Shown here one piece after another: positions 1,031-15,432 of a stretch of 32,000 nt of DNA. The position numbers and the translations under genes are program-made. The stretch comes from Nitrosococcus oceani ATCC 19707 (GTDB taxonomy: Bacteria > Pseudomonadota > Gammaproteobacteria > Nitrosococcales > Nitrosococcaceae): assembly GCF_000012805.1 (NCBI RefSeq), contig NC_007484.1, positions 2,880,001 to 2,912,000 on the forward strand. Reading direction: 5' to 3'. Every line of letters starts with the position of its first letter. Position 1 is the first letter of the stretch. The notes beneath the pieces are model-generated. The model saw nothing but the letters and a program-made list of their open reading frames with translations, searched no databases and was not told the DNA's origin.

Positions 1031-1200
1031 ATGACTTCTGGCTTAGTTGCGCCAAAAAAAAATATAGGGTCATCTATTCCGATCCACCTTGGACATTTAA
1101 AACCTATTCAAAAAAAGGCATTTACAGGAAGAAGAACTGTAAAGACCTAGGCCAGCTACCTGATCCTCTCACCGGAAATAGCCGCCCTCCTAGTTGAACC
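1031..1200 (+). pseudogene. Remnant of an MT-A70-family (DPPW) adenine methyltransferase, frameshifted and 3'-truncated
   Basis: ATG 1031 gives MTSGLVAPKK, then an A9 run at 1054-1062. One frame over it reads YRVIYSDPPWTFKTYSKKG, the N-terminal catalytic DPPW motif of MT-A70-like methylases. Only about 55 codons remain before the converging gene at 1210. Confidence 0.5.
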
Positions 1201-1209
1201 CAATAAATA

Positions 1210-1581
1210 CTAATGGCCTGTTCCGTAAGTGGTATCCCGATAAAAATCCTCAAAGACATAGGTAGGGTGAATAATTTTAGCTGTCGGCACGAAAAAAGTC
1301 GCCAATTCCCCTACTCCCACGAGCGTACGGCCAAGGGTTTGACCAATCCCTTTAAGCAACCCCCAGCTTACCCCAATGCCTACATTACTATCCTTGCTAG
1401 TATTTATTATATTTTTAGGAATTTCTACCCAACCAGTCGCTACATTGGCTAATCCACGTCCCAATTTTTCACCCACTTCCGAGCCATAGCCTTCTCCTGC
1501 CAGGGCTGATGAAGTAAAACCCAATAATAATAACGCCAATAAAGCCATGGTCCCTATTGATCTAGTCATTTTATTACCCAC
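1210..1581 (-). CDS. Small secreted protein resembling the exosortase-system-associated TIGR04073 family
   Basis: Signal peptide (MALLALLLLGFTSSALA). The motif GRGLANVATGWVEIPKNI matches my recollection of TIGR04073-type proteins. GTG start at 1581, with an alternative ATG at 1569. Confidence 0.6.
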   Translation of the reverse strand: MGNKMTRSIGTMALLALLLLGFTSSALAGEGYGSEVGEKLGRGLANVATGWVEIPKNIINTSKDSNVGIGVSWGLLKGIGQTLGRTLVGVGELATFFVPTAKIIHPTYVFEDFYRDTTYGTGH

Positions 1582-1610
1582 TATCCTTACCCTTTTCCTT
1601 GTAAAACCTT

Positions 1611-1690
1611 GGAATTAAACATGGATGTTTAATGACCCCCCAGCGAGAGTGCGAAACAAAGTGGCACATCGAGCGCGAGGGCCACATAAA
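1611..1690 (+). repeat. Copy A of an approx. 58-80 nt module shared with the region upstream of tnpB (copy B at 13647-13724, opposite strand)
   Basis: Core 1634-1690 (gaccccccagcgagagtgcgaaacaaagtggcacatcgagcgcgagggccacataaa) differs from the reverse complement of 13647-13704 by 5 substitutions and 1 indel. Weaker similarity extends to 1611. It contains the imperfect hairpin CGA-ga-GTGC...GCAC-a-TCG. Confidence 0.8.
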
Positions 1691-1694
1691 AATA

Positions 1695-2000
1695 GGTCCC
1701 CGGTGTTTGACCCCACCGGGGAAGGGTTGGCTTTCGCCGCAGCCCGAAGGCTGTAAAGGTTCCCTCGCTCAGTTATCTCGCGGTTTCTCCCACCCTTGCG
1801 GGTCAATCCATCGAGGGAGCACTGCCCGTTATCCCGGCCCGTGCTGTTTAACCCCCTGGCGCAGTGTTCGGAGCTGGGAATGCACCCCGAAGTGCCTATC
1901 TTTACCGGCTGAGGTAACACAAGCCCGTCAGCCAGAATTCGCGAGTAACCTCTCCTACCGGAGTAGGGAGCTGGTTGAGTCAATAACTGATCATTTAAAT
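1695..2000 (+). ncRNA. Candidate large structured RNA of unknown class (strand uncertain)
   Basis: There is no credible protein; both overlapping ORFs give Cys/Pro/Arg/Gly-rich junk. Many perfect GC-rich stems are present: 1697-1705/1714-1722, 1740-1744/1749-1753, 1761-1767/1812-1818, 1792-1795/1800-1803, 1819-1822/1841-1844, 1907-1912/1928-1933, 1952-1958/1963-1970, 1946-1950/1973-1977, and long-range 1724-1728/1850-1854. G-U extensions (1739-1754, 1946-1977) are possible only on the + strand. Confidence 0.45.
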
Positions 2001-2117
2001 ACATGGAAGTATGCAAATTTTAGTTAAACCGGGGACTCAACAACCATAGTTGACACTATTAAAACTTGCTAGAGGCGTTGATAATATACGCAAAAAAATA
2101 GAGCTAAAAGCAGTCAA

Positions 2118-3986
2118 ATGAAAAAATGGTTTCTCTACAACAGTATCGCATTAGTACTATTCGGGCTATCCATGGGGAGCTATGGACGCGAAATCCAAGT
2201 GCCTATACAACTCAATAATGAGCTGCTTCGCCATATTCTCATTAGGGAAGTTTATGTCGGTCCCCATCATACGGCCCAGGTCTGGAATGATGATAGCGGC
2301 TGCAATTCTTTAGTGCTTTCCAATCCCCGGGTCGGTAATGCCGGCCAGCAGCTTCGCATTCTCAGTGACGGAATAGCCAAGCTCGGAACGCCCATTGGCA
2401 ATCGCTGTATTCCACTCCTAGACTGGACAGGAACGATTGAAGTATTCCAAAAGCCCATGCTTGGACCCGAACTGACTACCCTCTACTTCCAAACTGTACA
2501 ATCCAATATTTATAACGCCGAAGGGCATAAGGAAGCTGCCACGGGTCAGCTCTGGGATAGGATCAAAGAATATGTACACCCCAGGCTCTCGCAGGTCCGG
2601 ATTGACCTCCAGCCCCAGTTAGCGGAACTGCGAAATCTACTGCCCTTGGTATTATCTCCCCGGGACCGCTCACGGATTCAGACCGCCATTGATTCCCTAA
2701 CCCTGACCGAAGCACAAACGACCCCGGACGGGATTAAGGTCGCCTTGCGTTTTACACTCCCGGATCTCAACACTCCCCCTCCTTCTCCGGAACCGCCCCT
2801 CTCACCTGAGGAAATGCAGCGCTGGGAAGCAGCGTGGCAGCAAGGAGATGCGTTTCTAACCTTTATTATCAAGCAGGCAGCAGCTGAAAATGAGTTAGCA
2901 GAATTACGCCCGCTTTTGTTGGAAATTCTTTTAGACGCCCGTCACGATATAGACAAGGCCCTCACTGCTTCAACGCCTGGAACGGCCGATCCCATCCGCA
3001 CGCTGTTTCTAAAAACCTGGGAACGCCTGGCACCGGTATTGCGCCATTTAAGCCTGAGCATGCCCCATGAAACGGCCCTGCACTACCTGAGCTTTATTGC
3101 CGCCAGTGATGTCCTAAAAACCATTGACCAGCTTGGCCCGGCGTCTGGCCTCGATATCTCCACCGATGGGTTACGCCGGCTAGCCCGGATCATTGCTCCC
3201 CAAGCGGGGCACCATCCCTTGTTTTACAACTTTAAGGTCGATCCTGAGTTGCGGCGCTTATTGGGATTTAGCGTGGCTCCATCCCCTTCTCGGAAAAACT
3301 CGCAACTCAACCTGAACGAGGGGTTATGGCGAAATGCCTGGGCTGCTGATAGCGTTGATCGACCCCTGATTTCACGGCTCAACCAGTGGGTTCCCACGAC
3401 AAAGGATATGGGAACCTACTTACCAATGGTCCACCAGCTCCTGGATCAAACCGTCAGCCATTTACTCCAAACTCATCCCTTGGAAAGCCAATACCACTCA
3501 CTGTACCGCTGGCTCCTGCTGGCTACCGCTTGGCAAGAAAGCTGTTGGCGTCAATTCACCAAGAAGGGAGACAAGATCCGACCGTTCCACTCTGGTGGAG
3601 GCTCGGTAGGTCTCATGCAGATCAATCAAAACGTCTGGCGAGGTTTTTACGATGTGCATGACTTGAACTGGGACATTGCCTACAATGCGCAAGCGGGGGG
3701 AGAAATCTTGTTGCGCTATCTGGTAGATTACGCCATCAAAAAAGGCGAGCATAAAAAAACAGGTGATCTCGATAATCTAGCTCGCGCCACCTATGCCGCT
3801 TATAATGGAGGACCAGGACACTTGAGGCGTTACCGTAAGGCAGGTACGCCAGAGTCCTTGCGTAAGATAGATGCTTCTTTTTGGGACAAATACCGAACCA
3901 TCAAACAGGGTAACGAACTGGCTGTCGCCCAATGCTTTGGTATAGAAGCCTCGTCTTTATCGCTTCCGCCAGGAAACAGAAGATAA
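2118..3986 (+). CDS. Secreted lytic transglycosylase-domain protein with a large uncharacterised N-terminal region
   Basis: Signal peptide MKKWFLYNSIALVLFGLSMGSYG. The C-terminal SLT-type motifs are AWQESCWRQF (catalytic Glu), GLMQINQ and AAYNGGPG. A Pro-rich linker (PPPSPEPPLSPEE) is also present. Confidence 0.85.
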   Translation: MKKWFLYNSIALVLFGLSMGSYGREIQVPIQLNNELLRHILIREVYVGPHHTAQVWNDDSGCNSLVLSNPRVGNAGQQLRILSDGIAKLGTPIGNRCIPLLDWTGTIEVFQKPMLGPELTTLYFQTVQSNIYNAEGHKEAATGQLWDRIKEYVHPRLSQVRIDLQPQLAELRNLLPLVLSPRDRSRIQTAIDSLTLTEAQTTPDGIKVALRFTLPDLNTPPPSPEPPLSPEEMQRWEAAWQQGDAFLTFIIKQAAAENELAELRPLLLEILLDARHDIDKALTASTPGTADPIRTLFLKTWERLAPVLRHLSLSMPHETALHYLSFIAASDVLKTIDQLGPASGLDISTDGLRRLARIIAPQAGHHPLFYNFKVDPELRRLLGFSVAPSPSRKNSQLNLNEGLWRNAWAADSVDRPLISRLNQWVPTTKDMGTYLPMVHQLLDQTVSHLLQTHPLESQYHSLYRWLLLATAWQESCWRQFTKKGDKIRPFHSGGGSVGLMQINQNVWRGFYDVHDLNWDIAYNAQAGGEILLRYLVDYAIKKGEHKKTGDLDNLARATYAAYNGGPGHLRRYRKAGTPESLRKIDASFWDKYRTIKQGNELAVAQCFGIEASSLSLPPGNRR

Positions 3987-7956: not shown

Positions 7957-8307
7957 ATGAATACAAAACCTTTAAACTCTACCCACAATGGCAATAAAGA
8001 TCCCCTGAAAAAAGCCCCCCAATGGGACATCGCGGAAGCCCAGCGAATCGTGCGAGAAAAACTAGAGGCGATAAAAGCAGATATCTACTTATTTGGTTCT
8101 AGGGCAGATGGAACCATGGGCCGTTATTCGGATATCGACATTGGCATAGATCCCCATGAGCCATTACCCACGGGGCTGCTTGCGGAAATTCGGGAGGCAC
8201 TTGAGGAAAGCCAAATCATTTATCATGTGGACTTGGTCGATCTGTCACAGGTATCCAAAACATTCCGCCGGCGTGTCCTTGAAAAAGGTGTTCAGTGGAA
8301 AGATTAA
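7957..8307 (+). CDS. Minimal nucleotidyltransferase (MNT) antitoxin of an MNT-HEPN pair
   Basis: Pol-beta-type NTase motif LFGSRADGT...YSDIDIGI. It overlaps the downstream HEPN gene by 13 nt. Confidence 0.85.
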   Translation: MNTKPLNSTHNGNKDPLKKAPQWDIAEAQRIVREKLEAIKADIYLFGSRADGTMGRYSDIDIGIDPHEPLPTGLLAEIREALEESQIIYHVDLVDLSQVSKTFRRRVLEKGVQWKD

Positions 8308-8711
8308 GGCAAAGAATCGGTACCGCTCGCAAAGCGCTTTCACAGTTTGAAAAACTGGCTAATTTATCTCAGCCTAACAATATTGAGCGCGATGCCGGTA
8401 TACAAAGCTTTGAATTCAGCTTCGAAGCCGTCTGGAAGACCGCTCAGCGACATCTCCAGATTATAGAGGGAATAGACGCGGCGTCCCCAAAAACCGTCAT
8501 TAGGGCTTCCTCGCAAACAAATCTTTTCGATGAGGACGAATCACGTCTCGCGCTGCAAATGGCGGACGACCGTAATCTCACCTCTCCTACTTATAACGAA
8601 GCGCTTGCCAAGAAGATCTTCTCCCGCTTAGGCGCCTATCATAAGTTCATGGGCAACTGGCTAAACCGCATGGAAGAAAAACTCGGAAAAAGTAGCGTTT
8701 CCCGCGCATGA
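8295..8711 (+). CDS. HEPN-domain protein (HI0074-like 'nucleotidyltransferase substrate-binding' family) with a variant active-site motif
   Basis: RDAGIQSFEFSFEAVWK and DDRNLTSPTYNE match the HI0074/HepT family signature. The expected His of R-x4-H is Pro (CCT, 8586-8588). Confidence 0.82.
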   Translation: MERLRQRIGTARKALSQFEKLANLSQPNNIERDAGIQSFEFSFEAVWKTAQRHLQIIEGIDAASPKTVIRASSQTNLFDEDESRLALQMADDRNLTSPTYNEALAKKIFSRLGAYHKFMGNWLNRMEEKLGKSSVSRA

Positions 8712-8770
8712 TCGCTAAATAAAGGCATGACTATCTTAAAATAACGCCCTGCTGCTACCACTATTATGCT

Positions 8771-8943
8771 ATGCGCGCGATAGATCAAAATCCAAACATC
8801 ATTCCAGGCTATGGAATCCCTCGGGGTTATGTGGAATTACGCAGTTGAAATCCAATCATGTGGTCATACCACATCCGCGCAAGGATATCCCTATTGGTAC
8901 GCTACACAATATCTACCGGCAAGCTGGATGGAAGTGGAGGTAA
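8771..8943 (+). pseudogene. hicA: HicA toxin pseudogene (frameshifted)
   Basis: The C-terminal part NHVVIPHPRKDIPIGTLHNIYRQAGWKWR* (8833-8943 frame) matches the HicA consensus. The upstream part (ATG 8771 ...RGYVELRS*) is in another frame and stops at 8846-8848. Its stop lies 3 nt before the hicB ATG. Confidence 0.55.
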
Positions 8944-8946
8944 GAC

Positions 8947-9345
8947 ATGTTGTATCCGGTCTATATTCATCCAGGTGATAATAAGCATGCTCACGGAGTA
9001 ACCTTTCCTGATTTCCCCGGATGTTTCTCCGCGGCTGATTCCTGGGAGGAACTGCCCACCAAAATTCAGGAGGCAGTAGAGCTGTATTTCGAGGGAGAGA
9101 CAATGGAGATCCCACCTCCCACACCGCTGGAGGAATTAGCTCAGCGCCCAGAATTCGAGGACGGTGCGTGGATGATGGTGGATATTAATTGCTCCCGCAT
9201 ACGTCCCAAGGCGACGCGCATCAATATCTCTCTGCCCGAAGCCTTGGTGCGCCGCATCGATGAATACGCAAAGGCACACCAGATGAGTCGTTCCGGGTTT
9301 CTGGCAAAGGTCGCCGAAGAGGCAATGCGTAAGAAGCACAACTAA
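8947..9345 (+). CDS. hicB: HicB-family antitoxin with C-terminal ribbon-helix-helix
   Basis: The N-terminal HicB fold signature is MLYPVYIHPGDNKHAHGVTFPDFPGCFSAADSWEE. The C-terminal RHH is INISLPEALVRRIDEYAKAHQMSRSGFLA. Confidence 0.85.
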   Translation: MLYPVYIHPGDNKHAHGVTFPDFPGCFSAADSWEELPTKIQEAVELYFEGETMEIPPPTPLEELAQRPEFEDGAWMMVDINCSRIRPKATRINISLPEALVRRIDEYAKAHQMSRSGFLAKVAEEAMRKKHN

Positions 9346-11871: not shown

Positions 11872-12270
11872 CTACACAACATCCTGATCGCGGGTATCTA
11901 CAAGATCATCGATATCCACTCCAAGCACCTTGGCGATCTGCTTGAGCGCTTTGACGGTCCCCTCCCTTTCTCCTTTTTCTATCATCGCTAGGTAGGATTG
12001 GCTTAATTCTGCCTGTTCCGCCAGATTGTGCTGAGTCAGGCCACGATAGATTCGCCATACTTTGATGGGGTTCTCGCCTTCCACCAGCCTCTTAACGACC
12101 TCGTGCGGCATCGCTTCCCCGCCAACAACCATTGCCTGATCAAAGGCGGCGACATCCTCCAGCATTTCTGCCTTTTCCTTTAGCGCCAAATATTCCTCGT
12201 AGGGCAAAACAGCCCATTCCGGCTTATCTCCACGCTTAATTAACGGCTTGATATCCAAATCCGATTGCAT
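11872..12270 (-). CDS. HTH (XRE-family) antitoxin-like protein with a Phd-like N-terminal segment
   Basis: From Met at 12270: MQSDLDIKPLIKRGDKPEWAVLPYEEYLALKEKAEMLEDVAAFDQA, followed by the HTH motif IYRGLTQHNLAEQAELSQSYLAMIEKGEREGTVKALKQIAKVLGV. The ORF stays open 33 codons further upstream to ATG 12369; see findings. Confidence 0.8.
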   Translation of the reverse strand: MQSDLDIKPLIKRGDKPEWAVLPYEEYLALKEKAEMLEDVAAFDQAMVVGGEAMPHEVVKRLVEGENPIKVWRIYRGLTQHNLAEQAELSQSYLAMIEKGEREGTVKALKQIAKVLGVDIDDLVDTRDQDVV

Positions 12271-12274
12271 GGGA

Positions 12275-12440
12275 TCTTGGAGTTTGCGGCTAAGTCTCGC
12301 TTGGCTGTTCCCGACAGCCGCGCTCGCCTTGCTGCAATTCGCGTTTCGCAGGCGTCCTTTGGCGGTCATAGGACCACCTCCAGTGGGTATACGCCTCCAC
12401 GCGCATCACTTCCGGTCCTCCCAACCGTAGCTAACCTTAA
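12275..12440 (-). ncRNA. Candidate TnpB omega-RNA (reRNA) scaffold spanning the tnpB 3' end and right end
   Basis: The position follows the known architecture of TnpB guide RNAs. Visible stems are 12370-12375/12414-12419 (AGGACC/GGTCCT, bracketing the stop codon), 12374-12377/12383-12386 and 12303-12308/12314-12319. Boundaries are not determined. Confidence 0.4.
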
Positions 12441-13538
12441 AATATTTTTAGCCGCGTTAATATCGCGGTCATGGACTGACTTACAGTCCGAGCAGGTCCA
12501 CTGCCGCACTTTGAGCGGCATGGCTTTTTGCACTGCGCCACACGCCGAGCACGTTTTACTGGTCGGCGCCCACCTATCCACTTGCCTAAACGCCCGGCCA
12601 TACCACGGGGCTTTGTATTCCAGTTGCCGCTTGAGTTCGTGCATGCCTACATCGCCCAAGGCTTTAGCGATGCGCCGGTTGGCCATCATGCCCCTGACGT
12701 TGAGCGTTTCCATGGCAATGAACCCCGCCTGGCGAATCAGTGCCGTGGTGAGTTTGTGCAACCAGTCCTGACGGGTGTTGCTCACCCTGGCGTGGGCCTT
12801 GGCGACCCTTACTCGCTGACGATGCCAGCGAACGCTTCCCTTGCGCTTGCGGGATAGCCTGCGCTGGGTTTTGGTGAGTAGACGCCGATAAGTGCGTAGG
12901 TGCCGTGGGTTGCCTGACTTCCAGCCCTCGGAGGTCACCACCACATCGCTTATACCCACATCAATACCGATACCGTTTGGCTTTCGCGGTAGGGGTTGGA
13001 GGGTTTCCTCGCACATGAACGAAACACAATAACAACCCGCGCAGTCCTGGGTGACCGAGACCATTTTGGGTATACCCTGGGGCTTACGAGACCATTTTAA
13101 ACTGAGTGCCCCAAGCTTGGGGAGTTTAAGCAACTTGCCCGCTCGATACCTTCCCGCTACCTGGCGTTGGTCAAGTTGATAGCGGATGCTTTGAGCGTGG
13201 GCTCTTTTTTTGAAACGGGGATACTTCGCTCGCCCTGCAAAGAAGTTTTTAAACGCGGTGTCCTGGTCTCTAAGCTTTTGATTGAGTGTGGTCGCGCTGG
13301 CCTCTTTTAACCAACCATAGGCCGCCGTCTTTTTTAGCTTGGTGAGGTGCCCGCTAAAGTCAACGCCGCTAACATGCTTGTCGTGCAGCCGGTATTGACG
13401 GCCACGCCAGGTCAGACAGGTGTTCCAGACCCACCGGGCATGGCCAAACTCCATCGCGAGTTGCTGGCGCTGGACGCTCGTGGGGTAAAAGCGGAATGTA
13501 TAGGACCGCTGAAGGGTGGTAGAATCGCATTGGGTCAT
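12366..13538 (-). CDS. tnpB: IS200/IS605-family accessory protein TnpB (RNA-guided RuvC nuclease), apparently intact
   Basis: Starts MTQCDSTTLQRSYTFRFYPT. RuvC residues are GIDVGISD (D), IAMETLNV (E) and HDRDINAAKNI (D). The zinc finger is CSACG...CSDCK. I place the start at Met 13538 rather than at the 454-aa ORF start. Confidence 0.92.
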   Translation of the reverse strand: MTQCDSTTLQRSYTFRFYPTSVQRQQLAMEFGHARWVWNTCLTWRGRQYRLHDKHVSGVDFSGHLTKLKKTAAYGWLKEASATTLNQKLRDQDTAFKNFFAGRAKYPRFKKRAHAQSIRYQLDQRQVAGRYRAGKLLKLPKLGALSLKWSRKPQGIPKMVSVTQDCAGCYCVSFMCEETLQPLPRKPNGIGIDVGISDVVVTSEGWKSGNPRHLRTYRRLLTKTQRRLSRKRKGSVRWHRQRVRVAKAHARVSNTRQDWLHKLTTALIRQAGFIAMETLNVRGMMANRRIAKALGDVGMHELKRQLEYKAPWYGRAFRQVDRWAPTSKTCSACGAVQKAMPLKVRQWTCSDCKSVHDRDINAAKNILRLATVGRTGSDARGGVYPLEVVL

Positions 13539-13646
13539 GGCCTCAATACTCGTCCTATTGGGTCGGTGGCAAGTGGCTAGGGGGTACTGATAATACTGCC
13601 TAGCCGCGCTTATTCTACCGCCAATTTTGCCCGCCGCAGACATCAC

Positions 13647-13724
13647 TTTATGCGGCCCTCGCGATCGATGCGCCACTTCGTTTCGCACGCTCGCTGGGGG
13701 GGGTCGTCGTACATCCCTGTATTC
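13647..13724 (-). repeat. Copy B of the module shared with 1611-1690, located 110-190 nt upstream of the tnpB start
   Basis: The reverse complement of 13647-13704 is gacccccccagcgagcgtgcgaaacgaagtggcgcatcgatcgcgagggccgcataaa, about 90% identical to 1634-1690. Confidence 0.8.
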
Positions 13725-13772
13725 CTTCATGCCACTCCCTTCTTCAACTTGGATTAAGCAGCGTGGCAGGGT

Positions 13773-13877: not shown

Positions 13878-14288
13878 CTATTCCTTAGCTGGACCTGCTT
13901 CCGCCACGGGTATGACAGGATAGCCGTGGGCGCGCGCACTCCGGGAAAATTTCCCGTCAAAAGTATAAAATACGCTAGCAGCCCCGGCGCTTGCAAGATG
14001 CATGGCATCCGCAAAATCTAGCCCTTTCTCGTAGAGATTCAATGCAAGGGAAACCTCGCCCGACGCTTCAACTCGCACATTCGGTAAACCCAGAATATGG
14101 CGCATAGCTCTTAATACCACTTCAGACGGTAGATCATAAACGGCTTCTAAAACCCACCCTAACTCTAGCAGCACTGTTTTAGTCACCAAAATCTCATTGG
14201 AGCCTAGCAGCGCCATTGCCTGCTGCGCCTGAATCTCATCGTCATTGGTCACATAACGTACCCATACGTTGGTATCTACAGCGATCAT
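13878..14288 (-). CDS. vapC: PIN-domain VapC toxin (full length)
   Basis: MIAVDTNVWV, LLELGWVL, DFADAMHLA and TFD are the four PIN acidic positions. It overlaps the upstream antitoxin by 4 nt. Confidence 0.9.
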   Translation of the reverse strand: MIAVDTNVWVRYVTNDDEIQAQQAMALLGSNEILVTKTVLLELGWVLEAVYDLPSEVVLRAMRHILGLPNVRVEASGEVSLALNLYEKGLDFADAMHLASAGAASVFYTFDGKFSRSARAHGYPVIPVAEAGPAKE

Positions 14289-14554
14289 CTTTTTTTATTT
14301 TTGGACCAACATTGGCGTAGGCTTTCGGCAATGCCTTTATCCATTTCCTCCAGGGATTTCGGGCTGCCTTGGTAACCCGTACAACCTAGTCCTTTTTCCA
14401 GACGGGTGACAGGAAAGGGTTTTAGAGGCCGGAGAATAAGATTCCCGTCTCTCTCTTCAACAATAAATTCCATTCCAGCATCCCAATGATGCGCTGCCCG
14501 GATAGTCTTAGGAATAATAATTTGTCCTTTACTGGAAAGGCGAGTGATTTCCAC
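14285..14554 (-). CDS. vapB: AbrB/SpoVT-fold VapB antitoxin
   Basis: MEITRLSSKGQIIIPKTIRAAHHWDAGMEFIV is a SpoVT/AbrB motif. Confidence 0.88.
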   Translation of the reverse strand: MEITRLSSKGQIIIPKTIRAAHHWDAGMEFIVEERDGNLILRPLKPFPVTRLEKGLGCTGYQGSPKSLEEMDKGIAESLRQCWSKNKKR

Positions 14555-14663
14555 AATATTTCCCTAGGTAAGATTTAGTAAGACGAAATACTACCATTCT
14601 TCTTCCAGGGAAACAATAAACACGTAGGACTTACCTAAAGGGAGGGCCAAACGCTGCTCATTG

Positions 14664-15230
14664 CTAAAAAACCTCTGTAAGCGCAAGGCGCAATCCCGGC
14701 AACAAGGGCGATCGCAAAACCTCCCTCTCGCCATAGCACGCCACCCTTTCAAATCCCCGCGGCCCTAGAGTAAGCAGTTCAATAACGCGAGACTCAGGGT
14801 CCACTAGCCAATATTCCTTAACCCCATAGCGGGCATAGAGGGTGCTTTTGTAAGTCCGGTCACGGCGAGCGGTTGCTGGGGAAAGAATTTCGACAATCAA
14901 ATCAGGCGCTCCTCGGATTTCGGTTTCCGCAATCATCGAAGCGCGCGCCTTGGCAATAAAAAAGATATCGGGCTGAACGATTTCCCTGCCACTGCCCTGG
15001 CCCAACACCACATCCAGGGGAGCACTATAAATCTGGCCTAGATCGCGCTCTTGTACATATTCCCACAGCAGAAACCCCAGATTGCGGGAGAGGCGCTGAT
15101 GATACTCGCTGGGTGAGGGCACCATCACCAGTTCCCCGTCCAGAAGTTCGTAGCGCCGTATTTCCGACTCGGGTAGACTTTTGTAATCTTCATAACGGAA
15201 CTTGATCCGGGAATCGGCTCCCAGGCCCAT
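14664..15230 (-). CDS. Uma2-family (DUF820) restriction-endonuclease-fold protein
   Basis: YELLDGELVMVPSPSEYHQ, QPDIFFI, PDLIVEILSP and EYWLVDP are typical Uma2 motifs. The start is placed at Met 15230 (MGLGADSRIKF...). Confidence 0.85.
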   Translation of the reverse strand: MGLGADSRIKFRYEDYKSLPESEIRRYELLDGELVMVPSPSEYHQRLSRNLGFLLWEYVQERDLGQIYSAPLDVVLGQGSGREIVQPDIFFIAKARASMIAETEIRGAPDLIVEILSPATARRDRTYKSTLYARYGVKEYWLVDPESRVIELLTLGPRGFERVACYGEREVLRSPLLPGLRLALTEVF

Positions 15231-15432
15231 GGCGTTTATCCTCCCTGGCGCTCGTTTGGCAGTACGTGTTTGAATTATAGCAGCGGGCAATATTTCCCAG
15301 CGAGAAAAGCGCACCGGTAGAGTATCGGCGCCAAGACTGGCATAATTTGTCCTTGTCTTATAATCTTTGCGCAGATAAAAGAATCTTATTTCTCAATTTT
15401 AACCCTTAGATTTTACTGGACTTTAACTGGCT

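Follow-up and report, generated by a model that had tools for sequence, protein, structure and literature searches.

What occupies the stem-rich, noncoding region between a TIGR04073-family gene and an SLT-domain gene of Nitrosococcus oceani ATCC 19707? The region belongs to a stretch of 32,000 nucleotides (contig NC_007484.1, positions 2,880,001 to 2,912,000), which we analysed as a whole, call the window and number from its first letter. A first-pass annotation, made from the sequence alone, had described positions 1611-2030 as a structured RNA of unknown class. According to our analysis the class is a known one. The locus is very likely an IscB-type omega RNA, corresponding to the Rfam family HEARO, which resides in a protein-less mini-element of the IS200/IS605 superfamily that is derived from an ISC transposon. 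The identity and the architecture of the element are well supported.

The first line of evidence is a match to the covariance model of HEARO (RF02033), a family since recognised as the guide RNA, or omega RNA, of IscB nucleases (Meers et al.; review PMC13565253). The model aligns to the minus strand from 2041 to 1753 with 62.9 bits, corresponding to an E-value of 2.6e-12 in a local search and of 1.2e-10 for the 32-kb window (both strands, 4227 Rfam families). The alignment covers 211 of the 211 model positions and is not truncated, and model position 1 falls on window position 2041, which was found independently as the edge of the transposon. The Rfam scan of both strands that the first-pass annotation had recommended is empty for the window at gathering thresholds; HEARO, at full length, appears only in E-value mode. 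The matching segment is:

1753-2041, minus strand: core omega-RNA scaffold, HEARO RF02033 model positions 1-211, defined by the covariance model and the family alignment

The sub-threshold match was tested independently with a degenerate pattern of 20 conserved HEARO positions, which was run on a metagenome collection. The pattern retrieved at least 120 loci, with few chance matches expected by our own estimate, and 18 of the 20 IscB-less loci that were rescanned carry HEARO above threshold (88-166 bits). When 16 of these above-threshold HEAROs were folded together with the window RNA in RNAalifold, 42 pairs were obtained, and compensatory variation is seen at 28. Within the well-aligned core, 23 of 28 pairs can form in the window RNA. 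At seven of them both bases deviate from the most frequent pair, and of the five core pairs that fail, four are artefacts of alignment gaps. Covariation, proposed earlier as a check on the RNA, is found as compensatory changes at seven core pairs against the 16 HEAROs.

The window RNA shares with HEARO the P1 helix, the pseudoknot strands, the long-range helix, the conserved UUAAACAG and CGAGG..AC motifs, a 5' GU at the transposon end and a multi-copy, mobile character, in addition to the full-length match. It differs in its score, in two inserted, lineage-specific hairpins of about 40 and 21 nt, in a 3' extension of about 60 nt that ends in a terminator-like hairpin, and in that no IscB open reading frame (ORF) follows the RNA. 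A score below the gathering threshold, two large insertions relative to the model and a 3' extension outside it are also what a truly new class of structured RNA might display if its likeness to HEARO were due to chance. This we find hardly credible in view of an E-value of 1e-10 over 211 of 211 model positions, the compensatory agreement with the family helices and an RNA 5' end that sits on the transposon boundary, as in all ISC elements. How much weight should then be given to the low score? With RF02033 no match (E ≤ 0.01) is obtained either at two gut-metagenome loci (L012 and L014), the proteins of which share 89% and 57% identity with OgeuIscB; hence the sub-threshold score is weak evidence against membership. 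OgeuIscB has a validated omega RNA, yet RF02033 misses the upstream regions of both loci. The gathering threshold therefore leaves out much of the true family, and the Rfam model represents only part of the diversity of IscB omega RNAs. RF02033 is also without the downstream structural elements (Meers et al.).

If the RNA is an omega RNA, where does the element that carries it begin and end? Its limits can be read from the orthologous intergenic region of N. watsonii C-113, which is an empty site (GTAAAACCTT joined directly to AACCATAGTTG), and from the paralogues within N. oceani:

1611-2041, RNA sense on the minus strand: whole protein-less mini-element, 431 bp, ISC-derived and resembling a palindrome-associated transposable element (PATE), delimited by the empty site and the paralogues
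1607-1610, plus strand: target-site motif CCTT (AAGG on the RNA-sense strand, the candidate target-adjacent motif, TAM), found at both full-length copies and retained in the empty site
1611-1690, plus strand: left end on the top strand, which is the 3' terminus in the RNA sense, holding a module (1636-1690) and a palindrome (1614-1633)

The unit thus runs to 2041 and not to 2030, as had been proposed. The insertion is clean: it lies between CCTT and AACC, with no target duplication and no terminal inverted repeats, which is a hallmark of single-strand transposition of the IS200/IS605 type (Kapitonov et al.). The element is absent from the orthologous intergenic regions of both N. watsonii and N. 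halophilus. In DNA folding, hairpins are predicted at the left end (1614-1633 and 1661-1685, z -3.8) and at the right end a P1-type helix only (z -0.8).

N. oceani has at least three copies. At this locus the window is identical to scaffold DS995302.1 of strain AFC27, which carries two further copies (L008 and L009) at unrelated loci with different flanks; both were reached via a spurious 38-aa ORF called within the element. The copies are 91-95% identical to one another, and the two paralogues score 54.4 and 38.1 bits with HEARO. All three share sequence up to 2041, and their flanks diverge from 2042 on. The left part, starting at the junction of CCTT with GGAATT, is common to the window copy and L009, and L008 is truncated, without the terminator hairpin and the left end. 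At one pair the paralogues covary (A-U in the window, G-C in L009, A.C in L008), and several substitutions to wobble pairs between copies keep the pairing. Window position 1950 is polymorphic among N. oceani assemblies at this locus: the window has C, whereas L002 and L006 have G, which is C on the RNA strand and agrees with the HEARO consensus ACGUU and with both paralogues. The contigs of four draft or Logan assemblies of other N. oceani strains (L002-L006) stop within the element, at window 1898-1931, as is typical of repeats. The repeat thus breaks short-read assemblies and is probably under-annotated in drafts.

The RNA lies on the minus strand, since tetraloop classes, Rfam match and fold energies agree, and the weak preference for the plus strand in the first-pass annotation is reversed. 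On the minus strand all four tetraloops of the window copy (UUCG, GAAA, UCCG and GCAA) are of the UNCG or GNRA class, compared with none of four on the plus strand. Against dinucleotide shuffles, a 420-nt segment folds with -161.3 kcal/mol (z -3.91) on the minus strand and -150.6 kcal/mol (z -2.84) on the plus strand; the minus strand gives the more stable fold, which supports a minus-strand RNA. Of the nine helices described earlier, seven are perfectly complementary and two (1952-1958/1963-1970 and 1946-1950/1973-1977) are imperfect. Beyond the core scaffold the RNA sense continues with two further parts:

1723-1752, minus strand: 3' extension of the scaffold, with two hairpins, one with a UUCG loop (1740-1753) and one with a GAAA loop (1729-1738), from alignments read directly
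1687-1722, minus strand: terminator-like hairpin with a 9-bp GC-rich stem (1697-1722) followed by ACCUAUUUUU as a U run, from a terminator scan

In the paralogues two GUAA-loop hairpins (minus strand) stand in place of the UUCG-loop hairpin at 1740-1753, and the UCCG loop is changed to UUCG. The minus-strand terminator suggested earlier at 1697-1722 was also picked up by the scan, in which one match is what chance would give; this hairpin is kept in L009 with one loop change and is absent from the truncated L008.

As the 5' end of the RNA is the transposon end at 2041, the flank directly beyond it would supply the guide:

2042-2057, minus strand: candidate guide 5'-AGUGUCAACUAUGGUU-3', flanking DNA directly 5' of the scaffold

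The assignment follows the model for IscB (Meers et al.). The 16-mer is unique in the window, and in the empty site of N. watsonii it is followed by AAGG, the candidate TAM.

Might the region encode a small protein instead? Two long ORFs (131 and 133 aa) cross it, and the one on the minus strand is uninterrupted in three of three copies. Neither has a match in Pfam, and neither is called in the annotation of AFC27. The plus-strand ORF is split into three frames in L009. The minus-strand ORF is frame-shifted after a 13-nt indel between copies, its C-terminal third is unrelated between copies, and the substitutions in it are almost all non-synonymous. A small protein gene can therefore be regarded as practically negligible, and the earlier judgement that the locus holds no credible protein stands: both ORFs are real, but they are not genes.

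A different possibility is a cis-regulatory leader or a riboswitch-like element of one of the two flanking genes:

1210-1569, minus strand: TIGR04073-family gene (NCBIfam TIGR04073, 96 bits), also called in the AFC27 annotation
2118-3986: SLT-domain (transglycosylase) gene; the RNA is antisense to this gene at 2118

The position between both genes would fit such a role, particularly for the TIGR04073 gene, as the element lies upstream of it, RNA and gene are co-oriented and only 41 nt separate the mini-element from the ATG at 1569. However, two other loci have the same 0.4-kb sequence beside unrelated genes, the orthologous regions of N. watsonii and N. halophilus lack it, its match is to an RNA family of transposons, and it runs antisense to the gene at 2118. 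A leader is thus very improbable for either gene, and the long leader of the gene at 2118 that had been put forward earlier is excluded by the two unrelated loci and the empty site in N. watsonii.

The left end connects the mini-element with a second mobile element of the window:

12277-13729, minus strand: IS605B tnpB-only element, 1453 bp, with tnpB at 12366-13538; its left end carries the shared module

Positions 1636-1690 match 13701-13647 with 91% identity over 55 bp (E 5e-16), which confirms the module that the first-pass annotation had recognised at the 5' edge as common to the tnpB element. The left ends of the mini-element, of two tnpB copies and of two PATEs all begin GGAAT.../...GGATG...CCCCCCAGCGAG. 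The IS605B element is 98.5% identical over 1455 aligned bp to L008 11723-13174, and in its protein we find TnpB domains and a match to NCBIfam guided_TnpB. Relative to tnpB the shared end is upstream, but relative to the HEARO RNA it is on the 3' side, so that the tnpB sense and the iscB sense are opposite. In pairs of ISC and IS605B elements one terminus is shared and tnpB is antisense to the ISC sense (Kapitonov et al.), and in the model of Meers et al. the omega-RNA scaffold comes from the right end with the guide outside the element. The orientation of the shared end fits both the arrangement and the model.

Could the RNA then belong to TnpB? The idea of a TnpB-less derivative, raised in the first-pass annotation, is right in that the locus is an RNA-only, PATE-like IS200/IS605 element with a shared end, but its RNA is of the IscB type and antisense to tnpB. 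The 55 bp in common with the left end of the tnpB element would fit an omega RNA of the TnpB type or an ordinary PATE of the element's family, and true PATEs of this family do occur in the genome. Beyond the left end, though, there is no similarity to the tnpB element, the RNA matches the IscB-associated family and is antisense to tnpB, and the tnpB-family PATEs are about 130-155 bp long and have the tnpB right end instead. Such an origin is very unlikely. TnpB omega RNA (right-end element RNA, reRNA) resembles the window RNA in that the scaffold is taken from the transposon right end and the guide from the flank, with the motif flanking the left end as TAM. It belongs to another family, lies 3' of tnpB with a 3' guide, compared with a 5' guide here, and, with reference to the shared left end, the two RNAs are on different strands.

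Returning to the IscB-type RNA in an ISC-derived mini-element, PATEs of the IS200/IS605 superfamily are similar to it in being protein-less, in having IS200/IS605-type ends, in their need for TnpA in trans and in the lack of target duplication. The mini-element is larger (431 bp compared with about 130-155 bp here) because it keeps a complete omega RNA gene, and its right end is of the ISC type. A further parallel is ISC2, including ISC2-1_NH of N. halophilus (Kapitonov et al. 2016), which has the same 5'-GT terminus, inserts beside a 4-bp motif without duplication and has a terminus in common with a co-resident IS605B element whose tnpB is antisense; in the mini-element, in contrast, the iscB gene is wholly absent. 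For the sister species N. halophilus a full-length ISC2 element is listed (Kapitonov et al.).

Several observations concern the tnpB family and its surroundings. L009 3907-4033 (about 127 bp) matches the left- and right-end tips of the tnpB element, and in L008 10663-10817 (about 155 bp) the similarity extends over a portion of the left end and over an internal stretch close to the 3' end; by their sequence both look like PATEs of the tnpB family. The right end of the IS605B element abuts an HTH_3 gene (ORF 11872-12369, 165 aa), of which about 100 N-terminal residues run into the element, and this reading frame may have been fused or extended by the insertion. At window 8295-9345 and 13878-15314 we found small accessory genes, for a nucleotidyltransferase substrate-binding protein, a HicB-like antitoxin, a PIN-domain protein and a Uma2-family endonuclease; the cluster that they form around the tnpB element suggests an island that is mobile or rich in toxin-antitoxin genes.

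Which nuclease might use the RNA? No iscB, HNH or RRXRR gene was found in the 32-kb window or within 8 kb of any copy. The count of copies proposed in the first-pass annotation yielded at least three in AFC27, with no iscB next to any of them. Since iscB is missing within 8 kb of all copies, the RNA is a standalone omega RNA in a PATE-like mini-element. Elements of this kind have precedents. PATE-like elements with omega RNAs were noted by Meers et al., and standalone omega RNAs without an effector are described, and shown to work in trans, in PMC10691335 and PMC9581776. As in the cases of Altae-Tran et al. 2021 summarised there, the window RNA has been mobilised, is without effector and transposase, and would have to act in trans; the cases summarised have an effector locus in the same genome and demonstrated trans activity.

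Loci without the nuclease gene are also frequent among the metagenome loci retrieved with the HEARO pattern. Among the matches listed, 33 of 57 loci with at least 1.65 kb of downstream sequence (about 58%) have no IscB-like ORF. Ten large downstream ORFs of IscB-less loci were compared with Pfam: nine belong to ordinary cellular families other than IscB, and one has no Pfam match. An IscB ORF downstream is hence not obligatory for a HEARO, as the 18 of 20 IscB-less loci above threshold demonstrate. Many of the IscB-less loci are found a short distance 5' of ordinary cellular genes and in the same orientation as these (Mur ligase, LarC, hydrogenase, RNase R and others), and one locus (L062) has two HEARO copies about 600 bp apart.

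Searches for relatives of the element and of its presumed effector gave mostly null results. A protein search with OgeuIscB, whose sequence was checked against PDB 7XHT/7UTN, returned only gut relatives among the best 120 matches. Exact 20-mers had no match in metagenome and viral collections, no similarity was detected in plasmid and phage collections, and a search with translated ORFs found no relatives in a genome collection evidently without N. oceani. The left-end and terminator segment has no similarity in the 120 metagenome loci listed. With a 19-mer core string, which is contained in all three AFC27 copies, species-representative genomes (among which N. oceani is evidently not searchable, as none of these copies was retrieved) gave one match, inside a 906-aa ORF; the match has no HEARO and looks like chance. 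As neither the 19-mer nor the 20-mers have a true match, the element is not a recent derivative of a sequenced relative.

How might a mini-element of this kind live? A Y1 TnpA made elsewhere in the genome would move it as single-stranded DNA and insert it 3' of CCTT without target duplication; several copies of IS200/IS605 Y1 TnpA are reported for N. oceani C-107, NS58, AFC27 and AFC132 (PMC7285500). Transcription would enter from the flank, the likely source being the promoter of the TIGR04073 gene, which is co-oriented and whose 5' region is occupied by the element. In the resulting RNA, a stretch of about 16 nt from the flank (2057-2042) would precede the scaffold and serve as the 5' guide. 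Together with an IscB or IsrB provided in trans, it might direct cleavage of the empty site (AGTGTCAACTATGGTT then AAGG), and such cleavage would favour retention or homing of the element. A role in retention or homing has been shown for such systems, as set out by Meers et al. and in PMC10691335.

Several of our results weigh against this explanation. The HEARO score of 62.9 bits is below the gathering score of 83, and, as described above, no effector gene accompanies any copy. A promoter scan found no consensus sigma-70-like promoter on the minus strand at 2042-2117, and the single match of the terminator scan is, on its own, what chance would provide. Outside N. oceani the nearest relative is a metagenome sequence with 77% identity over 150 nt, so no close relative was found. 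Helix-breaking substitutions are present in all three copies (at least four in L008, an A.A mismatch in P1 of L009 and one A.C in the window), which fits decay. A promoter read by hand (TATATT at 2088-2083, with a 23-nt spacer to TTGACT) is too weak to claim.

Does the element then still function? The same identity would hold if the copies were fossils of an extinct ISC lineage, with no effector left and no present function of the RNA. The missing iscB genes, the lack of a detected promoter and of close relatives elsewhere, and the divergence of 91-95% identical copies, which carry helix-breaking changes and of which one is truncated, all speak for such a dead relic. On the other side, the terminator hairpin, the left end and almost every helix are retained in both full-length copies, one pair is compensatory between paralogues, the species has TnpA genes, and standalone omega RNAs work in trans elsewhere, as cited above. 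We regard the dead relic as a serious possibility that falls somewhat short of an even chance, and consider it rather doubtful that the element is currently active rather than a decaying relic. If N. oceani has no IscB or IsrB, and all sequenced strains nevertheless keep the omega-RNA mini-elements at fixed loci, with most of the helices, the terminator and the left end preserved, these mini-elements would have a role that is independent of an effector. This is a long shot. If true, the element could be a mobile cassette of structured RNA plus terminator that rewires a downstream gene (here TIGR04073, 41 nt on) or, alternatively, a guide-only parasite awaiting an IscB by horizontal transfer.

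Some further observations touch the neighbourhood of the locus. Upstream of the left edge of the window, the Nitrosococcus gene for the large subunit of class I ribonucleotide reductase (L001 1-526, L010 1-1410 and L011 1-922) has LAGLIDADG and intein-type domains, and the enzyme of N. halophilus apparently has two insertions (1702 aa compared with 1336 aa). Between the TIGR04073 gene and the gene for the small subunit of this reductase there is an MT-A70 methyltransferase gene, of which N. halophilus has a full-length version (213 aa, L011 2337-2978) and N. watsonii a 72-aa fragment (L010 3219-3437). It is not called in the annotation of N. oceani AFC27, and window 1040-1140 reads like a remnant. 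A weak Rfam match to ctRNA_p42d at 8007-8041 on the minus strand (26.6 bits, E 0.07) is probably due to chance.

In conclusion, a 0.4-kb RNA without annotation has become a delimited element with ends, a strand, a target motif and a candidate guide. The locus is a divergent member of a kind already described, as effector-less omega RNAs were known before, and with it HEARO gains a divergent lineage below the threshold, from a marine ammonia oxidiser. It also indicates that the threshold and the model of HEARO in Rfam miss real omega RNAs, and it shows in a clean natural example how elements of the IscB type and of the TnpB type share an end as a module. If N. oceani is without any IscB, its copies would be useful for studying why guide RNAs persist in the absence of an effector; otherwise the element would be an ordinary instance of a described phenomenon.

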